Shown here piece after piece: positions 15,896 to 35,543 of a stretch of DNA of 64,000 nucleotides. The notes below the pieces were generated by a model. That model was not told the DNA's origin and made no database searches. It worked only from the letters and a program-made list of their open reading frames with translations. The position numbers and the translations under genes were made by a program. The DNA lies in assembly GCA_018268955.1 (NCBI GenBank), contig JAFDVO010000035.1, forward strand, positions 27,427-91,426. The letters run 5' to 3'. The stretch's first letter is position 1; every line of letters starts with the position of its first letter. Origin of the DNA: Acidobacteriota bacterium (GTDB lineage Bacteria; Acidobacteriota; Vicinamibacteria; Vicinamibacterales; CAVVIG01).

Positions 15896-18511
15896 GTGGC
15901 TATCGACTTTGATTCAGCATTCGAAGCGCTGACGTCTCACCCGCCGCTACCTTGGCAGGCCGCGCTGTTTCAGGAGTTTCGGGCCGGGCGCTTTCCGCGC
16001 GCCATCGATATCCCGACCGGACTTGGGAAGACCTCCATTGTGGCGATCTGGCTCTTGGCGGTAGCCGCTGCTGCCGGAGAGGAGGGACTGGTACGCACGC
16101 CTCGGCGTTTGGTGTATGTCGTCAACCGCCGCACCGTCGTTGACCAGACAACTACTGAATTGGAGCGAATTCGCGAGTCGCTCCTAAATAGCGCCGCACT
16201 GGTCGGGATTCGCGAGGCGCTAATGCGAATGGGCGGCCCCCGCGAGGGTGCATTTGCCCTCAGCACGCTGCGCGGAGCCTTTGCTGACAATGCCGAATGG
16301 CGCCAGGATCCTTCCGCTCCAGCGGTCATATGCGGCACCGTCGACATGATTGGCAGTCGGCTGCTGTTTGGCGGATACGGTTGCGGGTTTAAGTCGCGGC
16401 CGCTGCACGCTGGCCTGCTCGGCCAGGACGCGCTGCTTGTTCACGACGAGGCTCACCTTGAACCAGCCTTCCAGGTCCTTGTCGAGGCGATCGCCTCCCA
16501 GCAACAGAACGACGGCGATGCTCGGCCGCTGAAGGTGACGGCGATGACCGCGTCGACGCGCGATGCCTCCGGTGTGTTCGGCCTGACCGAGGCAGATCAG
16601 CGGCACCCTCTGGTTCAAAGCCGCACGAGGGCAGCGAAGAAACTCCGGCTCCATTCCGTGTCTGAAACCAATGAGTTACCGGACACGATCGCCGCTCTGG
16701 CAGGCGGTATGAGGCAGAGCAACGGCGCGATCCTGGTGTTCCTGCGCCGGGTCGACCAGCTCGAGAAGGTGGCCGCGGCACTGGAGAAGTCCGGTTGCCA
16801 CATCCAGATGTTGACTGGAACGAAGCGAGGGCTGGAACGCGAACGATTGATGCTTTCGGACCCGGTGTTCGCGCGGTTCATCGACGTGCCCGGCGTTCCA
16901 CCAGCAGCAGGGACTGTCTACCTGCTTTGCACCGCCGCAGGTGAGGTCGGGGTGAACATGTCTGCTGACCACATGGTTGGCGACTTGACGCCCTTCGATA
17001 GCCTCTTGCAACGGCTCGGCCGCGTGAACCGTTTCGGCGCCGGAGACGCCGACGTGGAACTCGTGTTCGCGTCTGGCGACGCCGATTCGGCGTTTGACGC
17101 GGCTGTGGGTCGTACCCTCAACGTGATCCGCAACCTTCCGATGATGAAGGGCGGCCTTCTCGACGCGAGCCCTTCAGCGCTGGCCTCAATTCCGCTGCAT
17201 GAACGACTCAGCGCGTATACGCCGGCGCCAGCAATTCTTGTTGTGTCAGACATCCTGTTCGACGCTTGGTCGTCGACCACCGTGCGCGAGTACGGAGCGG
17301 CGCGCCCGCCCGTCGGTCCCTGGCTACACGGCGTCTCGCCGGTGGAACCGCCTGGGACGGCGGTCTGCTGGCGTGAGGAGGTCGAGCTGATTCGTGGGCC
17401 GGAGTTGCTTGCGGCATATCCACCTGAGGAGTTGCTGGAGGACTATCCGATAAAGGCGTTTGAGACGCTGTCGGACCGCTCAGATCGCGTCATCAAGCAC
17501 CTGCAGGCGTTGGCGGTGCGTCTGCCCGACGCGCCGGCATGGGTAATGTCGCTGAGCGGCTCGATACAAACCTTTAGCCTTCGGGAACTCACGGGGCTGA
17601 AAGACTTGCGGGACCGGCTCGCGGCAGCGACGGTGGTGTTGCCGCCCACCGTGGGAGGGCTTCGGTTCGGCCGCGACCAGCGGTCGCTGGGCACATTGGA
17701 CGGACGCGCAGAATTCCTGCCCGAGCGTCGGGCCGACTACGACGTTTCAGGCGAGTGGGTAGATGCTGCGGGATTGCCAAAGCGGGTCCGAACCTGGGAT
17801 GCGCAACCTTTACCTGGGATGCGGATGGTCCGGCAACTGACGTTCGCCTCCACCGACGAGAACGACGATGAGGCCAGGCGGTGGGCATGGTGGGTGCGCA
17901 GTGTGGCGGCCGACGACGATGGTTCGCGCACGGCCGCACGCGCCGTCAATCTAGATGCGCATTTGGCCCAGACGGAATCCACAGTGGTCAGGTTTTGCGA
18001 AGCTGCGGCCCTGCCGCCTCGCGAAGCCCACGTACTCCGCCTCGCAGCTCGCTGGCACGACCTCGGAAAGAACCGCGCCGTATGGCAGCGCTCGATCGGT
18101 AATCAGTCCTGGCCAGATACGGTGCTCGCGAAATCGGCGGCGCCGATGAGCGTTCCGCTCAGCCCGTATCGCCATGAGGTCGGCTCGCTCATCGACCTGA
18201 CGCGACTTGATGAGTTCACGGCGTTGGCCCCCGATGATCAAGAACTGTTGCTGCACATCGTGGCTGCGCACCACGGGCGCGCTCGACCGCACTTCACCGA
18301 CTGGGAATCAATGGACCCTGAGTCGGAAGACCATCTGGTTCGCGCGATCCTGAACGAAGTGCCGTTGCGGTTTGCGAAGCTCCAGCGTCGGTATGGTCGG
18401 TGGGGGCTCGCTTACCTGGAGTCGTTCCTCCGAGCCGCCGATGCTGCAGCATCGAGCGGCGCGGTGAACGGGACGAACGCGTCATTGAACCTCGAGGCTG
18501 GTGTGCCATGA
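15896..18511 (+). CDS. cas3: CRISPR-associated helicase/nuclease Cas3 with C-terminal HD domain (I-U/I-G type)
   Basis: 871 aa. Walker A PTGLGKTS. DEAH box LLVHDEAHLEP. C-terminal HD motifs ARWHDLGK and IVAAHHGRARP. GTG start preceded by AGGAG. Confidence 0.85.
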   Translation: MAIDFDSAFEALTSHPPLPWQAALFQEFRAGRFPRAIDIPTGLGKTSIVAIWLLAVAAAAGEEGLVRTPRRLVYVVNRRTVVDQTTTELERIRESLLNSAALVGIREALMRMGGPREGAFALSTLRGAFADNAEWRQDPSAPAVICGTVDMIGSRLLFGGYGCGFKSRPLHAGLLGQDALLVHDEAHLEPAFQVLVEAIASQQQNDGDARPLKVTAMTASTRDASGVFGLTEADQRHPLVQSRTRAAKKLRLHSVSETNELPDTIAALAGGMRQSNGAILVFLRRVDQLEKVAAALEKSGCHIQMLTGTKRGLERERLMLSDPVFARFIDVPGVPPAAGTVYLLCTAAGEVGVNMSADHMVGDLTPFDSLLQRLGRVNRFGAGDADVELVFASGDADSAFDAAVGRTLNVIRNLPMMKGGLLDASPSALASIPLHERLSAYTPAPAILVVSDILFDAWSSTTVREYGAARPPVGPWLHGVSPVEPPGTAVCWREEVELIRGPELLAAYPPEELLEDYPIKAFETLSDRSDRVIKHLQALAVRLPDAPAWVMSLSGSIQTFSLRELTGLKDLRDRLAAATVVLPPTVGGLRFGRDQRSLGTLDGRAEFLPERRADYDVSGEWVDAAGLPKRVRTWDAQPLPGMRMVRQLTFASTDENDDEARRWAWWVRSVAADDDGSRTAARAVNLDAHLAQTESTVVRFCEAAALPPREAHVLRLAARWHDLGKNRAVWQRSIGNQSWPDTVLAKSAAPMSVPLSPYRHEVGSLIDLTRLDEFTALAPDDQELLLHIVAAHHGRARPHFTDWESMDPESEDHLVRAILNEVPLRFAKLQRRYGRWGLAYLESFLRAADAAASSGAVNGTNASLNLEAGVP

Positions 18512-19323
18512 GTGGGGAATGTGGATTCCAGGTTGACGTGGACCCGAGAAGCCCCGGACAGTTCCTGGCGTGCTGTGGCCTCCTCGAGATTGCGGACCGG
18601 CTTTGGGGCGCCTCGGGTTGGTTCGAATCTGAATGCTTTCGTGTGACTACGAGCGGTTCTCTCGCCGAGACTCTCGGCGCACTGACACACCGGGACGCCG
18701 AACCCGATCGCGTCGTCCTCCCCGACGGGTGTGATGTCGAGGCGAAGGACCTGATATCGCCGTTGAGGATCACTCTTTCCAGTGCTCCGCCGCGTTCGAT
18801 CAGGCTCGACGCCTGGTTGAAGATCCAACCCGACCGGGGTGAGATCATCGCGGTCGGAAATCCACCGTGGAACTTCTGGTCGGGACAGCAAACATCGCTC
18901 GGCATCTGGAGAACCCTTGCACAGGCGTTGAAACAGCTGCCCCTCAGCAGCGTCGGAAGACAGCTCTTTTCAGTTCGGCTTCCGTTGTCGGGACGTTTCG
19001 GATTTGATCCTGGCGCTGCGTGGAACGCCCTCGACGTGGGGTTCTCGCCGAACGAACAGGCGATGGCGGTCGCGTCATCTCCTGCCATCGAGATGCTGGC
19101 CGCAGTCGGTGTTCAGCGATTTCGTCCGGATGTCGACGGCAACTTCGAGACCTTCAGGTATGCGACGTGGGGCGCGCCTCTTCCACCACAGGCGGCCTCG
19201 GTGGCATTTCGAAGTTCGTGGACGGGAACAGGCGGCCAACGGTTCGTCGGGCGGGTGGTGTCTCGAGGCAGCTACGCTGCGCTAGGACTTTCAACTCTTG
19301 AGAAAGGATTCGATCGTGGGTGA
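18508..19323 (+). CDS. Csb3-like protein occupying the large-subunit slot of the Csb (Dpsyc) effector module
   Basis: 271 aa. ATGA overlap with the cas3 stop. It sits between cas3 and csb1. The N-terminus PGQFLACCGLLEIADRLW is as I recall for Csb3, but the family assignment is unverified. Confidence 0.5.
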   Translation: MSGECGFQVDVDPRSPGQFLACCGLLEIADRLWGASGWFESECFRVTTSGSLAETLGALTHRDAEPDRVVLPDGCDVEAKDLISPLRITLSSAPPRSIRLDAWLKIQPDRGEIIAVGNPPWNFWSGQQTSLGIWRTLAQALKQLPLSSVGRQLFSVRLPLSGRFGFDPGAAWNALDVGFSPNEQAMAVASSPAIEMLAAVGVQRFRPDVDGNFETFRYATWGAPLPPQAASVAFRSSWTGTGGQRFVGRVVSRGSYAALGLSTLEKGFDRG

Positions 19324-20419
19324 TGCGTTGACTCAGTTTGATAACTGGCTCGATATCGGCGGGCCCGCCGCTCTCGTCTTACGGGAGCCCCTCATTCCTG
19401 TCGAGGGACGCGACGGCATCCTGTTTCCTGCGACATTTGCCGCAAGCGAGGACCGAACGTTCCGAGGCGGCTATAACATCGATCGTTTTGACGATGGGAC
19501 GAGCATTTGCCTGATCGACAGTGTTGGATCGCAGGCGAATCGCCTCGAGCCCCTCTTCGCGACTCCGCCTTATTCGAGCCTCATCCCTCAATTGGTGATT
19601 ACAGCCGGCGAGAAGAGGATCAGCATCCTCGAAGCCGGACATCGGGCGGGCGATGCACTCGTGCGTTCGTCTTCGCTACAAGAGGAGCTCCGTTCGGCAT
19701 TCAAGGCTGCCCAGCAGAACGACGCTCTGCCGCTTGCCAGGATCGCTCCTACGTCGCTGGTGTTCGGCGCATGGGATTCTCGAGATACTCAAGCGAAACT
19801 TCCCAGGCTGATCGCATCGACCATACGAGCTTTCAACGTGAAAGCGTTGACCCGTTCTGCGCAATACGTCCCCGCGACGGATTACGTGAAAGGAGGCATG
19901 CTCGAAGAACCTGCCGACGAGAAGACCCGGAAACTGCACGCCGAGCGTGGCTTCGCGCACGTCCCCTCAACTGCTGTCCCAGGTGGAATCATTGCGGAGT
20001 CGATACGGCGTGATGCGACCCTTCACCTTGGAGCCCTCCGGCTGCTGGCGGCCGACCCTGCAGACCAGACGATGGTGCTCAGGCGGTACGTGCTTGGCTT
20101 GTCTCTGGTTGCGCTGACGGCATCCGCCACAGGGTATCTGCGGCAAGGCTGCAACCTCGTGCCTGATCCCGACCAGCCATCAACATTGACGCTTGTCGGC
20201 TCGGACGGAGCTCGTCAGGCGGCGAACCTTACGCACTCCGCCGCGCTTGCCTTTGCTCGGGAGGCGGCCTCCGCATTCGGGCTCGACGTGGACCGCGCCA
20301 TCTCGTTCGGCACGGCTCCCGATCGCCAGGTGCCATTCGATAAGGCACTCGCGGCGCGCGACCTTGCCGGCGATGAATCAGGGGAAAGGAAGAGTAAGAA
20401 GAGCAAGAAGGCCAACTGA
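19316..20419 (+). CDS. Csb1 (Cas7-type RAMP backbone subunit, subtype I-U/I-G)
   Basis: GILFPATFAA and IDSVGSQANRLEPLF blocks match the Csb1 N-terminus. GTG at 19316 follows AAAGGA. An in-frame TTG at 19298 is an alternative start. Confidence 0.7.
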   Translation: MGDALTQFDNWLDIGGPAALVLREPLIPVEGRDGILFPATFAASEDRTFRGGYNIDRFDDGTSICLIDSVGSQANRLEPLFATPPYSSLIPQLVITAGEKRISILEAGHRAGDALVRSSSLQEELRSAFKAAQQNDALPLARIAPTSLVFGAWDSRDTQAKLPRLIASTIRAFNVKALTRSAQYVPATDYVKGGMLEEPADEKTRKLHAERGFAHVPSTAVPGGIIAESIRRDATLHLGALRLLAADPADQTMVLRRYVLGLSLVALTASATGYLRQGCNLVPDPDQPSTLTLVGSDGARQAANLTHSAALAFAREAASAFGLDVDRAISFGTAPDRQVPFDKALAARDLAGDESGERKSKKSKKAN

Positions 20420-20426
20420 GGTAGGC

Positions 20427-21995
20427 ATGCAGACGCTGTTCGCGCTCGCAGTGCAGTTTCTGGACCCTGTGCCGATGTTCCACGGTCGCGGGGATGGTGG
20501 TGTCCCGGAGTGGCCACCGTCTCCATTTCGGTTGTTTCAGGCCCTCGTTGCCGCAGCCGCGAGACGGGATCCGTCACTCGCGGACGAGGAACGTCGTGCC
20601 TTGGAATGGCTGGAGTTGCAGCCACCGCCACGCATCGTGGTGCCAGCAGCAGTGACGGGAACACCAGTGCGGATCGCGGTGCCCAACAACGACCTCGATA
20701 CGTTGGCGAAGTCATGGGCGCGCGGTCAGGAGGCACGTAAACAGCCGAGCGAACTCCGGACACTCAAGACGATTCGGCCCACTTACCTGAGAAGCGGAGA
20801 CACGATCTTTTTCGAATGGTCCGGGGACGACAGTACTGACAGCGAACATCGGGAGACGCTGGCCGGCATCGCTGCGCGGGTGGCATCCCTTGGCTGGGGC
20901 GTGGACTTGGTGAGTGCGCGCGTGCAGCGGGGCAGCGCTGCCAGAAACGAGCGCCAAGAGGAATGGCTGCCACTGGGCGACAATGGGCGACGTCTCCGGG
21001 TGCCCACCGCAGGGTCCGTGAACGAATTGGTACAACGCCACCGCCAATTCACGACGCGCGTCGGAGACGATGGCTTCAGCCCGCCTGGCGCACCGTCTCA
21101 GTTCAGGGCCGTGGCGTATCGTCGAGCAGGCGCGCCAGTCGCCCAGCCGTGCGCGGCGTTCGCCTTGCTCGCGCCGGATTCCGGCCGGACGGTGTCTTTC
21201 GATGCTGCCCGGAGAAACCTGACGACAGCTGGAATGGTCAGGCATGCGGTCGCACGGGCGGCTCGTGCGTCCGGGTGGATTGAATCGCGGGTGAATGAGA
21301 CGATCCTCGGTCACGCTGAGGCTGCTGGCGAGAAGCATAGACCAGTGGCTGGTGTCAGGTTCGCCTACTTACCGATCCCGACGCTGGCGCGCCACAGTAG
21401 CGGCGACCGATCGGTGGGGCGAATCCGGCGTGTTCTCGTGACGTCGTTTTCAGAAAGCGCTGCCGAAGAGCTGCAGTGGGTGCAGCGCGCCCTCCCTGGC
21501 GCCGGGCTGCAGTCGGAGGCCGGCCGTCTCGAAGCGTTGCTCTCGCCGATCGCGGAGGTGGACACCGGAGTCGCCCCGTACCGTCAATCGGCGGCGGTGT
21601 GGACATCGGTAACGCCGGTCATCCTGCCGGGCTTCGACGACCCGGCCCACTATCGCCGCCGGATCGCTGCCGGCGTCTCTGCTGAGGAGCAGCGGCGACT
21701 TTTCTCGAAGCTCGGTTCACGTATTGAGCTTCTGCTGCGCAAGGCCATCGCTCAGGCAGGCATTCCGAGCACGCTTGCGGAACAAGCCGAAATCGAATGG
21801 CGGCGCAGCGGCTTTTTGGCCGGGGTCGAGTCGGTGTCAGCGTATGGGGTGCCCGACCACCTCAGAGCGTTTTCGCGTGTCCACGTTCGGATCACATGGA
21901 AGACGGCAGACGGCTCGCCCATGCGGATCCCGGGGCCGATCTGCATCGGCGCCGGCCGGTTCTACGGCCTCGGTTTGCTCGTGGGCGACGAATAG
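20427..21995 (+). CDS. Csb2 (Cas5-Cas6 fusion, subtype I-U/I-G)
   Basis: 522 aa from the ATG at 20427 (RBS GAGGTAGG). Hallmark EWPPSPFRLFQALVAAA near the N-terminus. Confidence 0.75.
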   Translation: MQTLFALAVQFLDPVPMFHGRGDGGVPEWPPSPFRLFQALVAAAARRDPSLADEERRALEWLELQPPPRIVVPAAVTGTPVRIAVPNNDLDTLAKSWARGQEARKQPSELRTLKTIRPTYLRSGDTIFFEWSGDDSTDSEHRETLAGIAARVASLGWGVDLVSARVQRGSAARNERQEEWLPLGDNGRRLRVPTAGSVNELVQRHRQFTTRVGDDGFSPPGAPSQFRAVAYRRAGAPVAQPCAAFALLAPDSGRTVSFDAARRNLTTAGMVRHAVARAARASGWIESRVNETILGHAEAAGEKHRPVAGVRFAYLPIPTLARHSSGDRSVGRIRRVLVTSFSESAAEELQWVQRALPGAGLQSEAGRLEALLSPIAEVDTGVAPYRQSAAVWTSVTPVILPGFDDPAHYRRRIAAGVSAEEQRRLFSKLGSRIELLLRKAIAQAGIPSTLAEQAEIEWRRSGFLAGVESVSAYGVPDHLRAFSRVHVRITWKTADGSPMRIPGPICIGAGRFYGLGLLVGDE

Positions 21996-22058
21996 AGCGA
22001 GCACAGTACAGCGTGTACCGCCAACACCGGCGACTTCGGCATGCCTCCCGTCAGGCGA

Positions 22059-22640
22059 TCACGCTTGAAAACATTCTTTCACCATCAAACTCCAGCCCGG
22101 CATAAGCGGCGTGGTCAGGGCGTCGCCACCCGCCGCTGTCAGCCGGGCCGCTTCGCGGTAGATCCCGTTCTCCAGCCGCAGCACGACGACTGTCTGAGTA
22201 TCCGGATCCACCAGCCAGTACTCATCGACGCCAAATCGTTCGTACAGGCGCCGCTTCAGCGTCTCGTCCCGGCGCTTCGTGCTCGGTGACGCGACCTCCA
22301 TGACGAGGTTGGGAGCACCCTTCACCCAGTCCGACGGCTCGAATGTTCGCTCACGTTCGCGGGAGAAGTAGAGCAGGTCCGGCTCCACCACGTCGTGCGG
22401 CGACAGGATGACATCCATCGCCAGGAACATCACGGTGCCGATCCGGTGCGTGCGAAGGTATGAGTGAATCGCAACGCCAACGTTCGTGACGATCGCCTGG
22501 TGCTTCCACACGGGCGACGGCGTCACGAAGTGCTCCCCGTCGATGATCTCGTGCCTGAGCCCGTCCTCCGGGAGGAACCGTAAGTCGTCCCATGACAGCC
22601 TGGCGCCCGACGCGTGCGGCATCCGGTCCCTCCCCAACAT
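22059..22640 (-). CDS. Uma2-family (DUF820) PD-(D/E)xK endonuclease
   Basis: 193 aa with HEIIDGEHFVTPSP, D...MEVASPSTKRRD...K...Y...GVDEYWLVDP, the canonical Uma2 pattern. Confidence 0.8.
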   Translation of the reverse strand: MLGRDRMPHASGARLSWDDLRFLPEDGLRHEIIDGEHFVTPSPVWKHQAIVTNVGVAIHSYLRTHRIGTVMFLAMDVILSPHDVVEPDLLYFSRERERTFEPSDWVKGAPNLVMEVASPSTKRRDETLKRRLYERFGVDEYWLVDPDTQTVVVLRLENGIYREAARLTAAGGDALTTPLMPGWSLMVKECFQA

Positions 22641-22834
22641 GCGCTCATTCTACCGTCGTCGCTGCGACGGTCATGCCCACGGCTGATGTTTGGAAAACGG
22701 CCGAAATGTGGGGTGCGACTCCGCTAGGTCTACGCCGCTGCCACACCACCGGCCGGGGCGCACGGCAAATCCTGCCATGTCAGACAGCTGCCGACAGGAG
22801 CGGCGACGCGTCGGCGCCGATACACCAAGGCGCG

Positions 22835-23152
22835 ATGCGCAAGACCTATCTGGTCACCTACGACATCTGTAACGACTATCGCCTCGCACGCGTGTACAAG
22901 ACGATGCGCGGCTTCGGGGAGCACTTGCAGTACTCGGTGTTCGAGTGCCAGATGAATGAGACCGACCTGGTGCGATGCCGCCACCTGCTCGGTCACATCA
23001 TCGATCACCGCGAAGACCAGGTGCTCTTCGTTGACCTGGGACCGACGGAAGGCCGTGGTGACCGTGTGATTACGGCATTGGGTCGTCCTTACACCTCCAT
23101 CGACGCGCCCTGCATCGTCGTGGACGGCGTCATCGTGGACGAGGAGGAGTAA
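22835..23152 (+). CDS. cas2: CRISPR-associated endoribonuclease Cas2
   Basis: 105 aa from the ATG at 22835: MRKTYLVTYDI...YSVFEC... Confidence 0.8.
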   Translation: MRKTYLVTYDICNDYRLARVYKTMRGFGEHLQYSVFECQMNETDLVRCRHLLGHIIDHREDQVLFVDLGPTEGRGDRVITALGRPYTSIDAPCIVVDGVIVDEEE

Positions 23153-24966
23153 TGGCAGAACCGGCTCCCGCACGGCTCCAACCGACGTTTCCCCGACCGA
23201 GGCCCGCATCCGCACACCTGAAGACCACGCTGCCAGACTACCTGCCGGCGCGGATGTTGAACGAGTACGTCTACTGCCCCCGGTTGTTCTTCTACGAATG
23301 GGTCGAAGGCGTCTTCGCGCACAGCTCGGACACCGTCAGTGGAAGCCTGCGCCACGAGGTGGTCGACGCGCGCACCGATGGACTGCCGGGCCCGGAAGAC
23401 GTGGAAGGGCTGACGCTGAAGGCGCGGGCCGTCACGCTCTCCAGTGAGATACACCGGTTGATCGCCAAGATGGACCTGGTGGAAGTAAGCGACGGCGCCG
23501 TCGCACCGATCGACTACAAGGTTGGCAGGCCGAAAGACGGCGCAAGCGGACCCGAAGCCTGGCCGGCCGACCGTGCGCAGTTGTGCGCGCAGGCACTGGT
23601 CCTTCGCGACAATGGCTACGAGTGCCGCGAGGCCATCGCTTACTACCACGCGACGAAGCAACGCGTCCGGGTCGCGATCGACGAACCGTTGGTGTCCGAA
23701 ACGGTTGCCGCGCTGGATGCTGCGCGGCGGCTTGCCGAGCACGGGCGCATTCCGGCGCCCCTTCAGGACAGCCCGAAGTGCCCGCGGTGTTCGCTCTCCG
23801 GCATCTGCCTTCCTGACGAAACGGCGGCAGCGCTCGCGTGGCAGGAGGAAGAGACGGGCGACCAGCTGCTGCTCTTCAGTGAGGAGTTCCTGCACGTACC
23901 GGGTCCGCTTGCCTCATCTCCTGAGCGGGACCTGCGCAGGCTGGTCCCGGCGCGGGATGATGAGCGGCCACTCTACGTGACCGGCTACGGACTCACAGTC
24001 GGCAAGTCGGGCGAGGTGCTCGAGGTCCGGGACAAGAAGCAGCTGATTCAGGAAGCCCGGATCAAGGACGTGTGCCAGCTGAACGTCTTCGGCACGGTGC
24101 ACGTCACGTCGGCGGTCATCGAGGCGCTGTGCTTTGCAGAGAAGCCGATCGCGCACTTCTCCATGGGCGGATGGTTCTACGGGCTCACGCAGGGGCTCGG
24201 ATTGAAGAACGTGTTCCTGCGGCGCTCGCAGTTCGAGCAGGCGGACGACGAGGCGTTCTGCATTCGGGCCGCTCGCGCGTTTATCACCAGCAAGATCAGG
24301 AACCAGCGCACGTTGCTGCTGCGGAATCACATCGAACCGCCACCCATCGCTCTCGCGCGGCTCAAGACGCTCGCCGCGTCGGCTGCAGAGTGCGACAGTC
24401 TCGAGTCGCTGCTCGGCGTCGAGGGCACGGCCGCCCGGGTGTACTTCGAGCATTTTCCCGGCATGCTGAAGGCGGAGAACTGCGACGGGTCCATGGCTTT
24501 CGACTTGGAGCACCGCAACCGTCGTCCTCCGCGGGACCCGGTGAATGCGATGCTGTCGCTCGCCTACGCGTTCCTGACGCGGGACCTGACGATCATCTGT
24601 CACGCGATCGGGTTCGACCCGTTCATGGGGTTCTACCACCAGCTTCGCTTCGGCCGTCCGGCGCTCGCCCTGGACCTGATGGAGGAATTCCGGCCGCTGA
24701 TCGCGGATTCCGCGGTCATCACGGCGATCAACACACGGATGGTCACGGCTGACTGCTTCGTACGGACGGGATCGGCCGTGTCGCTGGACAAGCGCGGACG
24801 AACCGGTCTGATTCGTGCCTATGAGCAGCGGATGGATGCGTTGGTGACGCATCCGCTCTTCGGCTATCGTGTGTCCTACCGCCGGATTCTCGAGATACAG
24901 GCCCGGATGCTGGCCCGCGTTGTGACCGGAGAGGTTCCGCGATATGCAGGGTTCGAGACGCGATGA
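23152..24966 (+). CDS. cas4-cas1: Cas4-Cas1 fusion protein
   Basis: 604 aa. The N-terminal Cas4 part has YCPRLFFYEW, a MDLVE...IDYKVG nuclease motif and a CPRCSLSGIC Fe-S cluster. The Cas1 body starts at RPLYVTGYGLTVGKSGE. TAATG overlap with cas2. Confidence 0.85.
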   Translation: MAEPAPARLQPTFPRPRPASAHLKTTLPDYLPARMLNEYVYCPRLFFYEWVEGVFAHSSDTVSGSLRHEVVDARTDGLPGPEDVEGLTLKARAVTLSSEIHRLIAKMDLVEVSDGAVAPIDYKVGRPKDGASGPEAWPADRAQLCAQALVLRDNGYECREAIAYYHATKQRVRVAIDEPLVSETVAALDAARRLAEHGRIPAPLQDSPKCPRCSLSGICLPDETAAALAWQEEETGDQLLLFSEEFLHVPGPLASSPERDLRRLVPARDDERPLYVTGYGLTVGKSGEVLEVRDKKQLIQEARIKDVCQLNVFGTVHVTSAVIEALCFAEKPIAHFSMGGWFYGLTQGLGLKNVFLRRSQFEQADDEAFCIRAARAFITSKIRNQRTLLLRNHIEPPPIALARLKTLAASAAECDSLESLLGVEGTAARVYFEHFPGMLKAENCDGSMAFDLEHRNRRPPRDPVNAMLSLAYAFLTRDLTIICHAIGFDPFMGFYHQLRFGRPALALDLMEEFRPLIADSAVITAINTRMVTADCFVRTGSAVSLDKRGRTGLIRAYEQRMDALVTHPLFGYRVSYRRILEIQARMLARVVTGEVPRYAGFETR

Positions 24967-25148
24967 GCCGCGCGAGCGGCGAGGTGGCGCGCCCGGCCGC
25001 ACCCCCGCTCGAAGGGCGCAAGTTGTTGATGGCTGAAGGTTTCCGTGGAGTGATGTTCGCCGGCGCATGGCCTGTTCGGGCTGCGCGTGGGGGGCGCTCG
25101 CGATTGCGCCCGGAAGCGATTGAGAACAGAATACTTGGCGGGCGCGCC
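24967..25148 (+). promoter_or_regulatory. putative CRISPR leader
   Basis: 182-bp non-coding gap between the cas4-cas1 stop and the first repeat. The degenerate repeat is at the opposite end of the array. Confidence 0.5.
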
Positions 25149-28100
25149 CTCTCCGCGGTTGAAGAACCGCGGCCTCATTGAAGCGAGAGCAGCGGGCCGA
25201 CGAGCGAGCCGAGCGCCGCCTCTCCGCGGTTGAAGAACCGCGGCCTCATTGAAGCAACTTCTCGCCGACCCACGGCAGATTCGATCCGAGCCTCTCCGCG
25301 GTTGAAGAACCGCGGCCTCATTGAAGCTCGTTGATCGTCTCGTTGCCGACGATGGGCTGCGGCTCTCCGCGGTTGAAGAACCGCGGCCTCATTGAAGCGC
25401 GCCCTACCAGCGCGGGATCATGGATGCGTTCCACCTCTCCGCGGTTGAAGAACCGCGGCCTCATTGAAGCGACCTGTGGGACCGCCTCGCGGAGAAGGAC
25501 CCGCGCCTCTCCGCGGTTGAAGAACCGCGGCCTCATTGAAGCACGTCAGCCGAATCAGCACGACCCGGCCCAAATTCGACTCTCCGCGGTTGAAGAACCG
25601 CGGCCTCATTGAAGCCCGTCCTGCACGCGGGCGCTCCCTGGCACCACGGCGCTCTCCGCGGTTGAAGAACCGCGGCCTCATTGAAGCTTCCTGGGGCTGG
25701 AGCGGACGACGGTCATTCCGCGGACTCTCCGCGGTTGAAGAACCGCGGCCTCATTGAAGCCGGTGACCGTGTCGCGTCGATTGGTCGTGGCCCGCTGCTC
25801 TCCGCGGTTGAAGAACCGCGGCCTCATTGAAGCCCGCTGGTCTCGTCGGCCCCAACGGCGCCGTGGACGAACTCTCCGCGGTTGAAGAACCGCGGCCTCA
25901 TTGAAGCAAGATGGTGGCGAGTGATGGCAGACTGAGCGGAGCCGCTCTCCGCGGTTGAAGAACCGCGGCCTCATTGAAGCCTGGCATTGGCCGCCCACTC
26001 ATGGCGGGCGACCGCCTCTCCGCGGTTGAAGAACCGCGGCCTCATTGAAGCTGGTACCAGGGGAACGTGACGGCGTGGAACCCGGCCTCTCCGCGGTTGA
26101 AGAACCGCGGCCTCATTGAAGCGAGCTGTTTGAGCTTTGCTACCGTGTCCATGTCCCCTCTCCGCGGTTGAAGAACCGCGGCCTCATTGAAGCGCGCGCG
26201 CGCTGGCACGGCACGGGCTGTACGCGGACTCTCCGCGGTTGAAGAACCGCGGCCTCATTGAAGCGAGTCGAGAAGTGCCCAGACTGCGGCACCCTCATCC
26301 TCTCCGCGGTTGAAGAACCGCGGCCTCATTGAAGCACCCGCATCGCCGACGCGCTCGAGCGGATCGCCGCCTCTCCGCGGTTGAAGAACCGCGGCCTCAT
26401 TGAAGCCGGCCCTCTCGGGGATGTACCGTGTCGCGCTGCAGCCTCTCCGCGGTTGAAGAACCGCGGCCTCATTGAAGCTGATCGAGCGTGCGGGCTTCCG
26501 CCACCTGCGGAGACCTCTCCGCGGTTGAAGAACCGCGGCCTCATTGAAGCGTCGAGCAGCTCGCGGCGCTCCCGTCGACCGTGACCTCTCCGCGGTTGAA
26601 GAACCGCGGCCTCATTGAAGCGCGTGCGGCCCGTGCCGCCCGCCGATACGCGCCCCGCACGGCCTCTCCGCGGTTGAAGAACCGCGGCCTCATTGAAGCC
26701 GAGGGTGTCGGGCGGCAGTGCCCGCGAACACCTACTCTCCGCGGTTGAAGAACCGCGGCCTCATTGAAGCGGCATGTAGCCGAGGACCGCCGCCACGTCG
26801 AACGGCCTCTCCGCGGTTGAAGAACCGCGGCCTCATTGAAGCGGCGGGCTCATGCGAATCATCAACGCGAGCCTCGGCACCTCTCCGCGGTTGAAGAACC
26901 GCGGCCTCATTGAAGCGCGGCACTCGGCACACCCGGTGCCACGAAGCCCGCCTCTCCGCGGTTGAAGAACCGCGGCCTCATTGAAGCAAGCTCACCACAC
27001 GGGAGTTCAGCGACTACATGGACTCTCCGCGGTTGAAGAACCGCGGCCTCATTGAAGCCGGCTCCGGGGCCATCGTCGTCCACACCGTCTGCCCTCTCCG
27101 CGGTTGAAGAACCGCGGCCTCATTGAAGCCGAGACAAGCGGCGATCTATCTGATGCGTTCAGCGACTCTCCGCGGTTGAAGAACCGCGGCCTCATTGAAG
27201 CCCGCTGGTCGGGGACCTCATGGTCGGCATGATGGACCTCTCCGCGGTTGAAGAACCGCGGCCTCATTGAAGCGCACGAGCGATGCGGGCGGTCACGACC
27301 GTCAACGGCTCTCCGCGGTTGAAGAACCGCGGCCTCATTGAAGCCTGCATCGTCATTACGCAACCATCGCTTTCCGGCGCCTCTCCGCGGTTGAAGAACC
27401 GCGGCCTCATTGAAGCGTCCAACCCGGACGCGTGGCGTTACTGTACGGCGTCTCTCCGCGGTTGAAGAACCGCGGCCTCATTGAAGCAGTTCGGCGCGGA
27501 TGGCCCGCTTGTCGCACTACGACTCTCCGCGGTTGAAGAACCGCGGCCTCATTGAAGCCCCAGAGACCCACCCTATGGATTCCCTGGGCCGCCCACTCTC
27601 CGCGGTTGAAGAACCGCGGCCTCATTGAAGCGGGAACTTCGGCGGCGTCCGCGGCGTGTTCCAGAAGCGCTCTCCGCGGTTGAAGAACCGCGGCCTCATT
27701 GAAGCCACAGCAACCGCTCGAACGTCGGCACCGGCGCGGCCTCTCCGCGGTTGAAGAGCCGCGGCCTCATTGAAGCGAGCACGCGGGCGCACTCATCAAT
27801 CGCATCCTCCTCTCTCCGCGGTTGAAGAACCGCGGCCTCATTGAAGCCCGACCGGCTGTTACGCGTCGGCGTCGGCGCCGACGACTCTCCGCGGTTGAAG
27901 AACCGCGGCCTCATTGAAGCGCTAGCCGCTCCATCAACGGCAGGACTTCGCGGCTCCTCTCCGCGGTTGAAGAACCGCGGCCTCATTGAAGCCAGAAGCC
28001 GCCGAAGATCGGCGTGCCGTCCTCGGTCCTCTCCGCGGTTGAAGAACCGCGGCCTCATTGAAGCAACGCGACGAGTTGGCCGACGGCGAGTTCGCTCAGG

Positions 28101-28209
28101 GTCTCTCCGCGGTTGAAGAACCGCGGCCTCATTGAAGCGCGGGTGCCATAGTGACTGCGATGCGATGGGTGTCCTCTGCGCGGTTGAAGAACCGCGGCAT
28201 CATCCGAGA
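25149..28209 (+). CRISPR. CRISPR array, 43 repeats (42 intact + 1 degenerate terminal), 42 spacers
   Basis: The 36-bp repeat is CTCTCCGCGGTTGAAGAACCGCGGCCTCATTGAAGC. I located every repeat start by hand from 25149 to 28174. Periods are 71-78 bp, giving spacers of 35-38 nt plus one of 42 nt. The repeat has an internal 8-bp stem CCGCGGTT/AACCGCGG with a GAAG loop and a 3' ATTGAAGC tail. Confidence 0.97.
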
Positions 28210-28277
28210 TCGTCCGGTTCATCGCGCCGACACGCTCGTCGACTCCGCGCGGAGCGCGGTTGGGCCGACCGGTGGGT

Positions 28278-28457
28278 CTACTTGACGCGCTCGGTCGAGG
28301 ATGACGGCGAAGACGTTGGCGTAGTCGGCGGCACGGCGGGCGAGTTGCTGGGCGGGAGTTTCCCGTCCGGATGCCGGAGCGCTTGGCGCAACGCGACTGT
28401 GGGCGGGACTCCCTGTCTCGCCAGGCGTTTCGCCAGTGCTTTCTGTTCCGGCGTCAT
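28278..28457 (-). CDS. 59-aa ORF with HTH-like N-terminus (possibly a decayed gene)
   Basis: ATG at 28457 lies 6 nt after GGAGG. It translates as MTPEQKALAKRLARQGVPPTVALRQALRH. The C-terminal half is low-complexity P/S/T, while the -1 frame looks better coded (LARRAADYANVFAVILD). It is below the 60-aa cut-off of the ORF track. Confidence 0.25.
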   Translation of the reverse strand: MTPEQKALAKRLARQGVPPTVALRQALRHPDGKLPPSNSPAVPPTTPTSSPSSSTERVK

Positions 28458-28736
28458 TGCTCGCCTCCGGGTTTACGGCTTGATGATCCCGGCCCGCACC
28501 TTTTGGTTGAAGGCTTCCAGGTCGCGGTCGATCATCGCGTCGATTTCGTCCGCCGTCGGCGCCGAGGCCCGCGGCGTGGGCGTGGGCGTCAGAGGCCCGG
28601 CCTTCGGCGTCGGCGCGGGCGAGTCGTTGGGCGAGCGTGACGTCGACATCGGTGAGATTGTAGCGCTCGTGCGGTCGACACTCGGTGTATAGCCGGAAGC
28701 GGCGCCGCCCACCGTGCTGAAGCGTCCCGTTAAGGA

Positions 28737-30100
28737 CCGCTCACGTGTGCGGCTCGGCGTTTAGCGGCGCACGCTCGTGCAGGACGTCGTGCCGGAGGCC
28801 AGCCGTGGGAGCGCCGCGAACGCAGACCGTCAGGCGGAAACGGCCCGCAGGCGCTCAATACGCGGCGAGGGACGGCATTCCGTCCCGAGGCGCACGCCCA
28901 CAGACGACGGCCGAGGAGCCGTTTCCCGCGGCGCGGACCCGGCTGCGCCGGAGGCACGACGTCCTGCGGCACGCGAGCGGCTCACCGAGGACGGCCCGGC
29001 AGGCTGAAGCCTGCCGGCTACGATCGAAGGGCGCGGCTGCCCAATCTCCCGGCGACGATCGAAGGACGGCGCGGCTGCCCGATCTGCCGGCTACGCTCGA
29101 AGGCCGCACGGCTGCCCAATCCCGCAGCCTGCGAGTTCAAGTGCAGCGACTGAAGCCTGGCGGCCACGACCGCTCACGTGTGCGGCTCGGCGCCCAGCGA
29201 CGCACGGTCGTGCAGGACGTGGTGCCGCAGGCCAGCCGTGGGAGCGCCGCGAACGCAGACCGTCAGGCGGAAACGGCCCGCAGGCGCTCGGTACGCGCCG
29301 AGGGACGGCATTCCGTCCCGAGACGCAAGCCCACAGACGACGGCCGAGGAGCCGTTTCCCGCGGCGCGGACCCGGCTGCGCCGGAGGCACGACGTCCTGC
29401 GGCACGCGAGCGGGCCACCGAGGACGGCCCGGCAGGCTGAAGCCTGCCGGCTACGCTCGAAGGGCGCGGCTGCCCAATCTCCCGGCGACGATCGAAGGAG
29501 GCGCGGCTGCCCGGTCTGCCGGCTACGCTCGAAGGCCGCACAGCTGCCCAATCCCGCAGCCTGCGAATTCAAGTGCAGCGACTGAAGCCTGCCGGCAAGA
29601 ACCGCTCACGTGTGCGGCTCGGCGCCCAGCGACGCACGGTCGTGCAGGACGTGGTGCCGGAGGCCAGCCGTGGGAGCGCCGCGAACGCAGACCGTCAGGC
29701 GGAAACGACCCGCAGGCGCTCGGTACGCGCCGAGGGACGGCATTCCGTCCCGAGGCGCAAGCCCACAGACGACGGCCGAGGAGCCGTTTCCCGCGGCGCG
29801 GACCCGGCTGCGCTGGAGGCACGACGTCCTGCGGCACGCGAGCGGCTCACCGAGTAGGCCCGGCAGGCTGAAGCCTGCCGGCTACGATCGAGGGAGGCGC
29901 GGCTGCCCGATGTGCCGGCTACGCTCGAAGGGCGCAGCTGCCCGATCTGCCGGCTACGCTCGAAGGGCGCAGCTGCCCAATCTCCCGGCGACGATCGAAG
30001 GACGGACGGCTGCCCGATCTGCCGGCTACGATCGAAGGGCGCGGCTGCCCAATCCCGCAGCCTGCGAGTTCAAGTGCAGCGACTGAAGCCTACCGGCTAC
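28737..30100. repeat. three head-to-tail copies of a ~432-bp composite non-coding element
   Basis: Units start at 28737, 29170 and 29602 (CCGCTCACGTGTGCGGCTCGGCG). Periods are 433 and 432 bp. Hand alignment gives about 94-95% identity. The third unit is lengthened by extra 35-37-bp sub-repeats. Confidence 0.9.
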
Positions 30101-30112
30101 GCTCGTGCGACA

Positions 30113-30326
30113 ACCCAGAGCCCAGAGCCTGCAGCCCATCGCCCATCGCCCATCGCCCATCGCGCACGCCGCCTACCCAGAGCCGACCAGCCCAGGAGCC
30201 TGAAGTCCGAAGCCCAGAACCCAGAGCCCAGAGCCCAGAGCCTGCAGCCCATCACCCATCGCCCATCGCCCATCGCCCATCGCCCATCGCCCACGCCAAC
30301 TACCCAGAGCCGACCAGCCCAGGAGC
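30113..30326. repeat. duplicated block of heptanucleotide microsatellites (CCCAGAG)n-(CCCATCG)n
   Basis: Copy A (30113-30198) has CCCAGAG x2 and CCCATCG x4. Copy B (about 30220-30326) has CCCAGAG x3 and CCCATC[GA] x5-6. Both end in ...CTACCCAGAGCCGACCAGCCCAGGAGC. Confidence 0.85.
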
Positions 30327-30416
30327 GCCGACGCCCGAAGCCCAGAGCCAGAGCCCTGACGCGAGCGCGCCACGCGGAACCACCCCGCCGTACCCGTCGT
30401 CTATGATGGAGACCGT

Positions 30417-31103
30417 ATGGCCCTCATCGAAACCGTGGACCTGTGGAAGACCTACCAGATGGGCGAGGAGGAGATCCACGCCCTGCGCGGCGTCTCGATC
30501 CAGATCGAGCGCGGTGAATACGTGGCCATCATGGGGCCGTCCGGCTCGGGGAAGTCGACGCTGATGAACCTGATCGGGTGCCTGGACACACCGAGCAAGG
30601 GCTCATACCTGCTCAACGAGAAGCAGGTCAGCACGATGGACGACAACGAGCTGGCCCGGATCCGCAACGAAGAGATCGGGTTCGTGTTCCAGACCTTCAA
30701 CCTGCTCCCGCGTGCCACCGCGCTGCGGAACGTGGAACTGCCGCTGGTCTATGCGGGTGTTCCGGCAAAGGAACGAGAGCAGCGTGCCCGTGCGGCACTC
30801 GAGAAGGTCGAACTCGCCACGCGCATGAACCACCGGCCGAACGAGCTCTCTGGCGGTCAGCGCCAGCGTGTCGCCATCGCCCGCGCCCTCGTCAACAACC
30901 CGTCCATCCTCCTCGCCGACGAGCCCACAGGTAACCTCGACTCGAAGACCGGCGTGGAAATCATGGCCCTCTTCGAGCGGCTCCACAAAGCCGGCAACAC
31001 CATCGTCCTCGTCACGCACGAACCGGACGTCGCCGCCTACGCGTACCGCACGATTCACATCCGTGATGGACAGGTGGAGCAGGACGTTCGCCGGGCCGCG
31101 TAA
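30417..31103 (+). CDS. ABC transporter ATP-binding protein (MacB/LolD-type)
   Basis: 228 aa with [24 protein letters not shown] and [12 protein letters not shown]. Confidence 0.85.
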
Positions 31104-33035: not shown

Positions 33036-33042
33036 GGAACTC

Positions 33043-33091
33043 AGACGTTAGACGTTAGACGTTAGAAGTCAGAAGTCAGAAGTCAGAAGTA
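33043..33091. repeat. compound heptamer microsatellite (AGACGTT)3(AGAAGTC)3-4
   Basis: Read directly from the sequence. The same words occur in reverse complement (CGTCTAA/CTTCTAA) at 3010-3037. Confidence 0.9.
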
Positions 33092-35401: not shown

Positions 35402-35543
35402 CGTACTCTCCGTAATTCACAAACGCCAACGCCACAACGCACGCCGCACCTGGTGTGACACGTTCCGGCGTCCTTGGTCCCTGCGTTTCCGCGTTCTTGC
35501 GTTTTTGCGTTCCTGCGTTTTTGCGTTTTCTCGTTACAGGTTC

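Follow-up and report, generated by a model that had tools for sequence, protein, structure and literature searches.

A 64,000-nt stretch of an Acidobacteriota genome (contig JAFDVO010000035.1 of assembly GCA_018268955.1; hereafter the window, numbered on the + strand with position 1 as its first letter) carries, beside a type I-G CRISPR array, a triple tandem array of a unit of about 432 bp. We found that the unit combines two types of palindromic repeat that also occur independently of each other, a ~190-bp palindrome and a short hairpin resembling repetitive extragenic palindromic (REP) elements, together with a minisatellite derived from the REP-like element. The array is non-coding, lineage-specific and stable across strains, and the palindrome is otherwise not associated with CRISPR. 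We consider the feature probably a non-coding, locally amplified tandem cluster of selfish palindromic repeats, in which a palindrome resembling a MITE (a miniature transposable element with inverted repeats) would have been captured in a REP cluster and then amplified, rather than a dedicated or CRISPR-linked machine.

A repeat search placed the three head-to-tail units at starts 28737, 29170 and 29602, spaced by 433 and 432 bp, and Tandem Repeats Finder reported a period of 433 with 2.9 copies and 93% matches over 28717–29982. Together with exact motif matches, these results confirm the three tandem units of ~432 bp that an earlier note on this DNA had described, and the anatomy given there (a head, an imperfect palindrome of ~190 bp, a hairpin with a 9-bp stem and three to five sub-repeats) proved accurate. 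In modular terms, each unit comprises the ~190-bp palindrome, a GTAG-tagged REP-like hairpin, three to five sub-repeats of 35–38 bp and a degenerate second REP copy at its end. Units 1 (28737–29169, 433 bp) and 2 (29170–29601, 432 bp) were delimited by Tandem Repeats Finder, the repeat search and alignment, while unit 3 (29602–30100) reaches 499 bp because it holds two additional sub-repeats, five vs. three in the other units, and terminates in CTGAAGCCTACCGGCTACGCTCG, where half a REP runs into the beginning of a further sub-repeat. The true start of the periodicity is at 28717, 20 nt before the first head, where Tandem Repeats Finder and alignment A1 place a degenerate copy of the inter-unit junction (28717–28736; CTGAAGCGTCCCGTTAAGGA vs. 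CTGAAGCCTGCCGGCAAGAA). The exact head CCGCTCACGTGTGCGGCTCGG (28737, 29170 and 29602), the perfect hairpin CCGGCAGGC-TGAA-GCCTGCCGG (28996, 29429 and 29860) and the unit tail (29133, 29565 and 30066) were found nowhere else in the window, with zero occurrences expected in shuffled sequence. From head to hairpin, unit 1 was 95.0% identical to both unit 2 and unit 3, and units 2 and 3 were 97.2% identical to each other, such that the ~94–95% previously obtained by hand alignment is revised to a range of 95.0–97.2%. The last degenerate CRISPR repeat ends at ~28203, which leaves a gap of ~530 bp to the array, as had been reported.

The three copies of the palindrome in the array (28775–28971, 29208–29404 and 29640–29836) scored 186, 187 and 189 bits with covariance model R1, and single-copy homologues of the element occur elsewhere. 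A metagenome scan with the 20-mer at its apex returned six contigs (L096–L101), two of which (L096 and L099) represent the same locus, resulting in six distinct copies at five loci; L100 carries two copies, 9 kb apart and in opposite orientation, and the other contigs carry one. Only the palindrome aligned between the dispersed copies and the array, over ~170–195 bp at 77–83% identity. None of the dispersed copies was tandem, and the head, REP hairpin, sub-repeats and tail had no match in the six contigs. The dispersed copies are intergenic, often 40–65 nt beyond a gene end, and occur in both orientations relative to neighbouring genes, among which Pfam identified a porin, a molybdo-enzyme, an extracytoplasmic function (ECF) sigma factor and an SMP-30-like protein; two more neighbours we take, from their translations, to be a DsbA-like protein and LeuC. 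At the locus represented by L096 (280–660) and L099, the element starts where the frame of a DPPY-motif DNA methyltransferase (..IYIDPPYNTGNDFIYPDNYADPLRAYL) breaks off, which suggests that this copy sits at a point of gene truncation or rearrangement.

The terminal inverted repeats of the palindrome in unit 1, GCAGGACGTCGTGCC and GGCACGACGTCCTGC, are 100% complementary and its apex reads GGGACGG-CATT-CCGTCCC, while the inverted ends of the family consensus are TGAGGCGGGGCGTCGTGC...GCACGATGCCCCGCCTCA. Copy-specific flanks lengthen the hairpin in several copies, with the head CCGCTCACGTGTGC pairing with GCACGCGAGCGG in the window, which would fit insertion into pre-existing palindromes. Direct repeats of 5–6 bp were present at the same boundary in two of seven copies (GCACGC in the window and GGCGG in L097) and in none of the others. 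The element is small (~190 bp, below the ~400-bp bound for MITEs) and without a transposase gene, as indicated by flat GC content across codon positions and no protein family match. Judged by these sequence characteristics, the palindrome belongs to a dispersed family similar to MITEs and REPINs (REP doublets forming hairpins), which appears to have been previously uncatalogued. A search with model R1 that covered the window plus all 104 loci (~0.8 Mb of fetched sequence) detected no new copies. Collections of plasmids and phages gave no blastn match to the array, and scans of viral contigs with the apex, head and tail gave zero matches each.

The hairpin formed by the palindrome is under constraint and kept by compensatory changes. 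In the nine-copy alignment (A2), the consensus is a rod-like hairpin of 60 pairs with 96.7% of cells paired. Both sides of the pair had changed in 12 of the 60 pairs, compared to 6.0 ± 1.4 in column shuffles (0 of 500 reached 12) and 0–3 in slid controls. Several of the double changes are independent of the window lineage, for example GGAACGG/CCGTTCC in copy L100a vs. GGGACGG/CCGTCCC elsewhere.

The second palindromic component is a perfect 22-nt hairpin with a 9-bp stem and a TGAA loop, present three times in the array and once more at 2123–2144. All four perfect TGAA-loop hairpins in the window have GGACGGY as 5' flank and CTACG(A/C) as 3' flank, with CTAC corresponding to GTAG on the minus strand. 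The module in unit 1 (28989–29022) consists of GGACGGC, CCGGCAGGC-TGAA-GCCTGCCGG and CTACGA, with equivalents in unit 2 (29422–29455) and unit 3 (29853–29886), and the isolated intergenic module at 2116–2150, between two unrelated genes, consists of GGACGGT, CGGCGGGGC-TGAA-GCCCCGCCG and CTACGA. Four stem pairs of the isolated module differ from the array stem and all four are compensated. Hairpin and tag match the GTAG-tagged REP signature (PMC3733652), and by this resemblance we class the perfect 9-bp hairpin as a putative GTAG-tagged REP-like element. Extended homology between 2100–2200 and the REP-to-tail segment of the unit was too weak to claim (score 65 vs. 44.6 ± 5.8 in shuffles, maximum 68.8).

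Scanning a genome collection with the 20-nt hairpin CGGCAGGCTGAAGCCTGCCG returned 82 loci (L009–L090) from many phyla, where only a few would be expected according to a rough chance estimate. None of the 82 loci holds the 432-bp unit, nothing beyond the hairpin matched, and the source species is not among them. Many of the matches are multi-copy REPIN-like doublets within single metagenome-assembled genomes (MAGs), as in a Thermoanaerobaculia MAG with the doublet GTGGAGC-GGCGGGCTTCAGCCCGCC...CGGCAGGCTGAAGCCTGCC-GCTCCAC on 17 contigs, and GTAG-tagged versions of the hairpin were found in Planctomycetota and Kuenenia. The phyla represented include Acidobacteriota, Planctomycetota (with Kuenenia), Dormibacterota and Nitrospira, and the doublet hairpins in several MAGs have a common GGCT(G/T)(A/T)AGCC-type core with GTGG or GTAG tags.

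Each sub-repeat of 35–38 bp opens with the 3' arm of the REP-like hairpin and its tag (CTGCCGG-CTACG), followed by reiteration of the adjoining flank. There are three copies of ~37 bp in unit 1 (29011–29121; CTGCCGG, which is the REP 3' arm, then CTACG(A/C)TCGAAGG and ..GCGCGGCTGCCCRAT), about three in unit 2 (29444–29553) and five of ~35 bp in unit 3 (29875–30054); Tandem Repeats Finder, with periods of 35–38, counted 3.0 copies at 29011–29121, 2.9 at 29447–29553 and 5.0 at 29875–30054. The unit tail then ends in a degenerate REP copy, GTGCAGCGA-CTGAAGCCTGCCGG. In unit 1 (tail at 29118–29163) the terminal degenerate copy, ..GTGCAGCGA-CTGAAGCCTGGCGG, makes the unit junction, and the tails with degenerate REP of units 2 and 3 are located at 29550–29595 and 30051–30096. 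All unit junctions, as well as the start (28717) and end (30083–30105) of the array, lie within REP-derived CTGAAGCC(T)GCCGG, and the REP-like hairpins, tags and sub-repeats in the array are all in direct orientation.

Because the unit junctions fall inside REP-derived sequence, we infer that the duplication was REP-mediated. The palindromic element would have inserted into intergenic DNA that had a direct REP copy on either side, and unequal recombination or replication slippage between these copies would then have duplicated the ~430-bp segment. A second round of duplication may have produced units 2 and 3 as the younger pair, since these are 97% identical to each other vs. 95% to unit 1, and slippage could subsequently have set the sub-repeat numbers at 3, 3 and 5. 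The middle unit in another assembly of the locus (L004) is a mosaic of units 1 and 2, which shows that units recombine with one another.

The earlier statement that no element with this architecture has been described was too strong. As a kind, the feature is known from clusters of REPs, from MITE/REPIN-like hairpin elements and from tandem duplication mediated by REPs, while the 432-bp higher-order period is unusual. GTAG-tagged REP clusters (Di Nocera et al. 2013, PMC3733652; Nunvar et al. 2010, PMC2817692) are likewise based on a short hairpin, rich in G+C, one end of which carries a conserved GTAG tag. Similar features of the present cluster are its extragenic position, the second copy elsewhere with a covarying stem and the reiteration of the hairpin in tandem with flanking DNA, whereas it differs in having two loci in ~71 kb, with all REP copies head-to-tail, and in its period of 432 bp, which owes its unusual length to the second element contained in every unit. 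Bacterial interspersed mosaic elements (BIMEs) of enterobacteria are also mosaic intergenic clusters of REP units and linker motifs, but according to one report (PMC2817692) their REPs are regularly spaced in alternating orientation, unlike here, where every REP and REP-derived sub-repeat has the same direction.

Compared to the long-hairpin MITEs Correia, ERIC and RUP (Delihas 2011, PMC3184786), the ~190-bp element is similarly small and non-coding with terminal inverted repeats, and is dispersed in intergenic regions in both orientations with a long stable stem-loop, but it has no consistent target-site duplication and no parent insertion sequence (IS) was identified for it. It shares with REPINs (Bertels and Rainey 2011, PMC3116915) a dispersed, non-autonomous character, one long conserved hairpin and no evident target-site duplication, although it is about twice the usual REPIN length and its ends have no GTAG or GTGG tag. 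The compensatory pairing over its whole length is nearer to REPINs than to classical MITEs. The join-points of the array, in short direct REP-derived repeats, also have a counterpart. Tandem duplications joined at REP sequences were reportedly described by Shyamala, Schneider and Ames in EMBO J in 1990, as large, unstable, chromosomal and laboratory-selected, whereas the present array is a small fixed triplication with 3–5% divergence.

Several observations weigh against selfish amplification. Only two REP-like loci are present in ~71 kb of the source genome (the window and ~7 kb adjoining it), with no additional REP or palindrome copies in the adjoining ~7 kb, and the REP status would be one of resemblance only. 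The six dispersed palindromes all come from one metagenome assembly set (WBZO01/WBZM01), and a consistent target-site duplication was not found among the seven copies. Neither a cognate transposase nor a parent IS was found, with the check covering the only transposase near a copy. This gene, of the IS1595 family and located between the two inverted copies in L100 (5384–6379), was rejected as parent as its ends are unlike the terminal repeats of the element. The recombination mechanism is likewise deduced from junction positions and not observed, and the units have diverged by 3–5% yet persist, so a selected role is possible. Moreover, a transcribed RNA would likewise be compatible with covariation over the full length of the hairpin and with the modest surplus of G-U relative to A-C cells on the + strand (19 vs. 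7).

The last two observations underlie the main rival to the selfish-repeat explanation, namely that the units are structured non-coding RNA genes, each specifying a rod-like + strand RNA of ~190–245 nt that is transcribed on its own or by read-through from the CRISPR array and acts as a multi-copy small RNA, a sponge or a protein-binding RNA. The loop and bulge sequences of the palindrome are conserved, and each unit folded slightly better than shuffles on the + strand (z = −2.7), although the minus strand folded equally well (z = −2.9) and the G-U count is biased, the structure having been predicted on the + strand. Hairpins are kept by MITEs and REPINs too. Within the family, conservation sets in right at the base of the hairpin and no promoter upstream of it is conserved, both orientations relative to flanking genes occur among the dispersed copies, and neither a sigma-70-like promoter nor an intrinsic terminator was found in 27900–30700. 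The Rfam check proposed for the array gave no relevant family: there were no matches at gathering score in the whole window, and at E ≤ 10 the segment 28100–30450 gave a sub-threshold CRISPR-DR16 match on the last CRISPR repeat and five chance-level matches to unrelated families (E 1.2–9.4). We therefore regard RNA genes as unlikely. It is less plausible that the ~190-nt element represents an undescribed strand-specific structured RNA family of Vicinamibacterales, or a single-stranded DNA hairpin substrate of an HUH-type transposase, and we hold this to be improbable; if the RNA interpretation were true, the three units would form a multi-copy RNA locus that either is transcribed together with the type I-G CRISPR array or insulates it. 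Among the three candidates put forward in the earlier note, the evidence supports the amplified MITE/REP-type element; for a structured RNA, the hairpin covaries but no finding points to it in particular, and a platform tied to CRISPR is not supported, as described below.

The array is non-coding, as the earlier note had argued. GC content by codon position was flat in the array (0.70–0.79 at all three positions) vs. 0.66/0.40/0.86 in the neighbouring ATPase gene, and the ORFs (open reading frames) in the array matched no Pfam family. In collections of 5.8 billion protein clusters and 1.84 billion representatives, the array ORFs had no relatives but themselves, and protein-space searches with three frames over the unit or the palindrome ORFs returned only the locus itself and one chance match to a eukaryote-like repeat protein (P0122). 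Gene callers annotated a 231-aa ORF over units 1–2 in two other assemblies (L002 and L095), which could be taken to favour a protein-coding repeat, but this call is spurious: the 433- and 432-bp periods break the reading frame between units and the ORF has no homologues other than itself in the same cluster collections. A protein-coding repeat was rejected on the flat codon-position GC and the lack of a Pfam match, and either this or an assembly artefact is so improbable as an account of the feature that we give it hardly any weight.

Assemblies of the same locus were found via look-up of the downstream ABC (ATP-binding cassette) ATPase. Source names attached to ATPase homologues of 91–99% identity assign the organism to Vicinamibacterales, phylum Acidobacteriota. 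In the 2.3 kb upstream of the ATPase start, the 1.6-Mb contig L001 (GCA_046331445.1) and the window showed zero differences, L095 was 100% identical over 28140–30416, L002 carried the array with one single-nucleotide polymorphism, and L003 and L004 covered the array in part. With the same array in five independent assemblies, assembled identically from different samples, the triplication is not an assembly artefact, contrary to a possibility raised previously. L001 is a different strain from that in the window, as only 23 of its 45 spacers are in common and the differences are at the cas-proximal end; the repeat array is therefore identical in strains with CRISPR arrays that are unlike at their leader ends. 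The trailer-side spacers of the window (25148–28203) and L001 (240–3790) are common to both, and L001 has 21 different leader-side spacers, so spacer turnover in this population is recent, and the comparison implies a few internal spacer losses.

The CRISPR array, with 42 repeats and its leader at the cas end (25148–28203, + strand), is read on the + strand with its trailer beside the repeat cluster, an orientation confirmed by the cas-proximal spacer differences in L001. The type I-G cas operon upstream (15896–24966, + strand) encodes Cas3 with a C-terminal HD domain, Cas8g2 (TIGR04106), GSU0053, GSU0054, Cas2 and a Cas4-Cas1 fusion. In two relatives with 97% identical ATPase (L092 and L093), three unrelated genes separate the SNF2 helicase gene from the ATPase gene, without CRISPR-Cas and without the repeat cluster, and in a third with 99% identical ATPase (L091) the locus is rearranged, with a different type I-G repeat (GCTTCAACGAGGCTGCGGTTCGCACCGCAGATAGAG) and no copy of the unit. 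The type I-G region at 15.7–30.4 kb is thus a lineage-specific island between the SNF2 helicase and ABC ATPase genes. Only ~50 nt upstream of the ATPase start codon are common to these genomes, and the array therefore lies in lineage-specific DNA at the right border of the CRISPR-Cas island. The three genes at the site in the relatives encode a 237-aa protein, a DUF4256 protein and an M28 peptidase.

Since the array sits at the border of this lineage-specific island, its position beside the CRISPR trailer looks incidental. The same position, 530 bp from the terminal repeat and within island-specific DNA at the right border, could be read as that of a CRISPR-linked element, whether a site at the trailer end that serves regulation or recombination, a mimic or decoy of the repeat, or what is left of one end of a mobile element that delivered the island, but we consider this very improbable. 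The sub-repeats, REP module and tail aligned to the CRISPR repeat no better than shuffles did, and mimicry of the CRISPR repeat was rejected on these local alignment scores. The related type I-G locus in L091 has no unit, and no recombinase or transposase gene was found nearby. The earlier note had asked whether copies are always CRISPR-adjacent and proposed a binding or recombination platform tied to the locus; in the metagenome contigs the dispersed palindromes were never beside a CRISPR, the CRISPR repeat of the window did not occur near the copies in L096–L101, and the platform is accordingly not upheld.

Any activity of the array would most likely be a by-product, by analogy with REP/BIME clusters and MITE hairpins. 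Candidates include transcription attenuation or insulation among the CRISPR array, a pair of small ORFs on the minus strand and the gene for the ABC ATPase, stabilization of mRNA ends, and a recombination hotspot. The alternative, a DNA platform under selection because it serves the host, as has been suggested for BIMEs, would bind nucleoid proteins or gyrase, or keep transcription of the CRISPR array apart from that of the ABC transporter gene, and would fit both the location between the CRISPR trailer with the two divergent small ORFs and the ABC ATPase gene and the perfect conservation among strains with differing spacers. Such roles are reported for REP/BIME clusters (PMC3733652, PMC2817692). 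However, the closest relatives have no array and the ATPase keeps only ~50 nt conserved upstream, the REP copies are all direct and not alternating as in BIMEs, and the sampled strains are too closely related for identity to show selection, which makes a selected platform quite unlikely.

With a cluster of selfish repeats as the preferred explanation, the main value of the analysis is one of clarification, as a striking repeat beside a CRISPR array would be nested selfish DNA and not a new CRISPR accessory. As by-products, it provides an apparently uncatalogued ~190-bp palindromic family, drawn from Vicinamibacterales-type metagenomes, whose conserved hairpin is well supported (alignment A2, model R1), and a likely example of how direct repeats of REP origin can give rise to tandem arrays of a higher order beside the edge of a defence island. 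Arrays of this sort break short-read assemblies and draw spurious gene calls, such as the 231-aa ORF, and their recognition improves annotation.

The two small ORFs between the CRISPR trailer and the array (28278–28457, 59 aa, and 28473–28712, 58–79 aa, both on the minus strand) diverge from the array. Their GC content at third codon positions (0.77 and 0.90) is coding-like and they are called genes in L001, L002 and L095, while searches against Pfam, NCBIfam and PHROGs gave no match. A gene for a putative endonuclease of the Uma2 family (22059–22640, minus strand) is located within the cas operon, where it is flanked by cas2 and the GSU0054-family gene, and a Uma2 gene likewise adjoins the Cas4-Cas1 gene in L091. 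Immediately 3' of the array (30101–30360) are two ~113-bp blocks of heptamer runs, (AGCCCAG)n and (GCCCATC)n, and further intergenic micro-repeats occur at 33037–33090 ((GAAGTCA)x7.7) and 35461–35529 (8-mers). GAAGTCA and GAACTTA heptamers lie directly beside the palindromic element copy in L101, and heptamer runs look like a general trait of intergenic DNA in these genomes.

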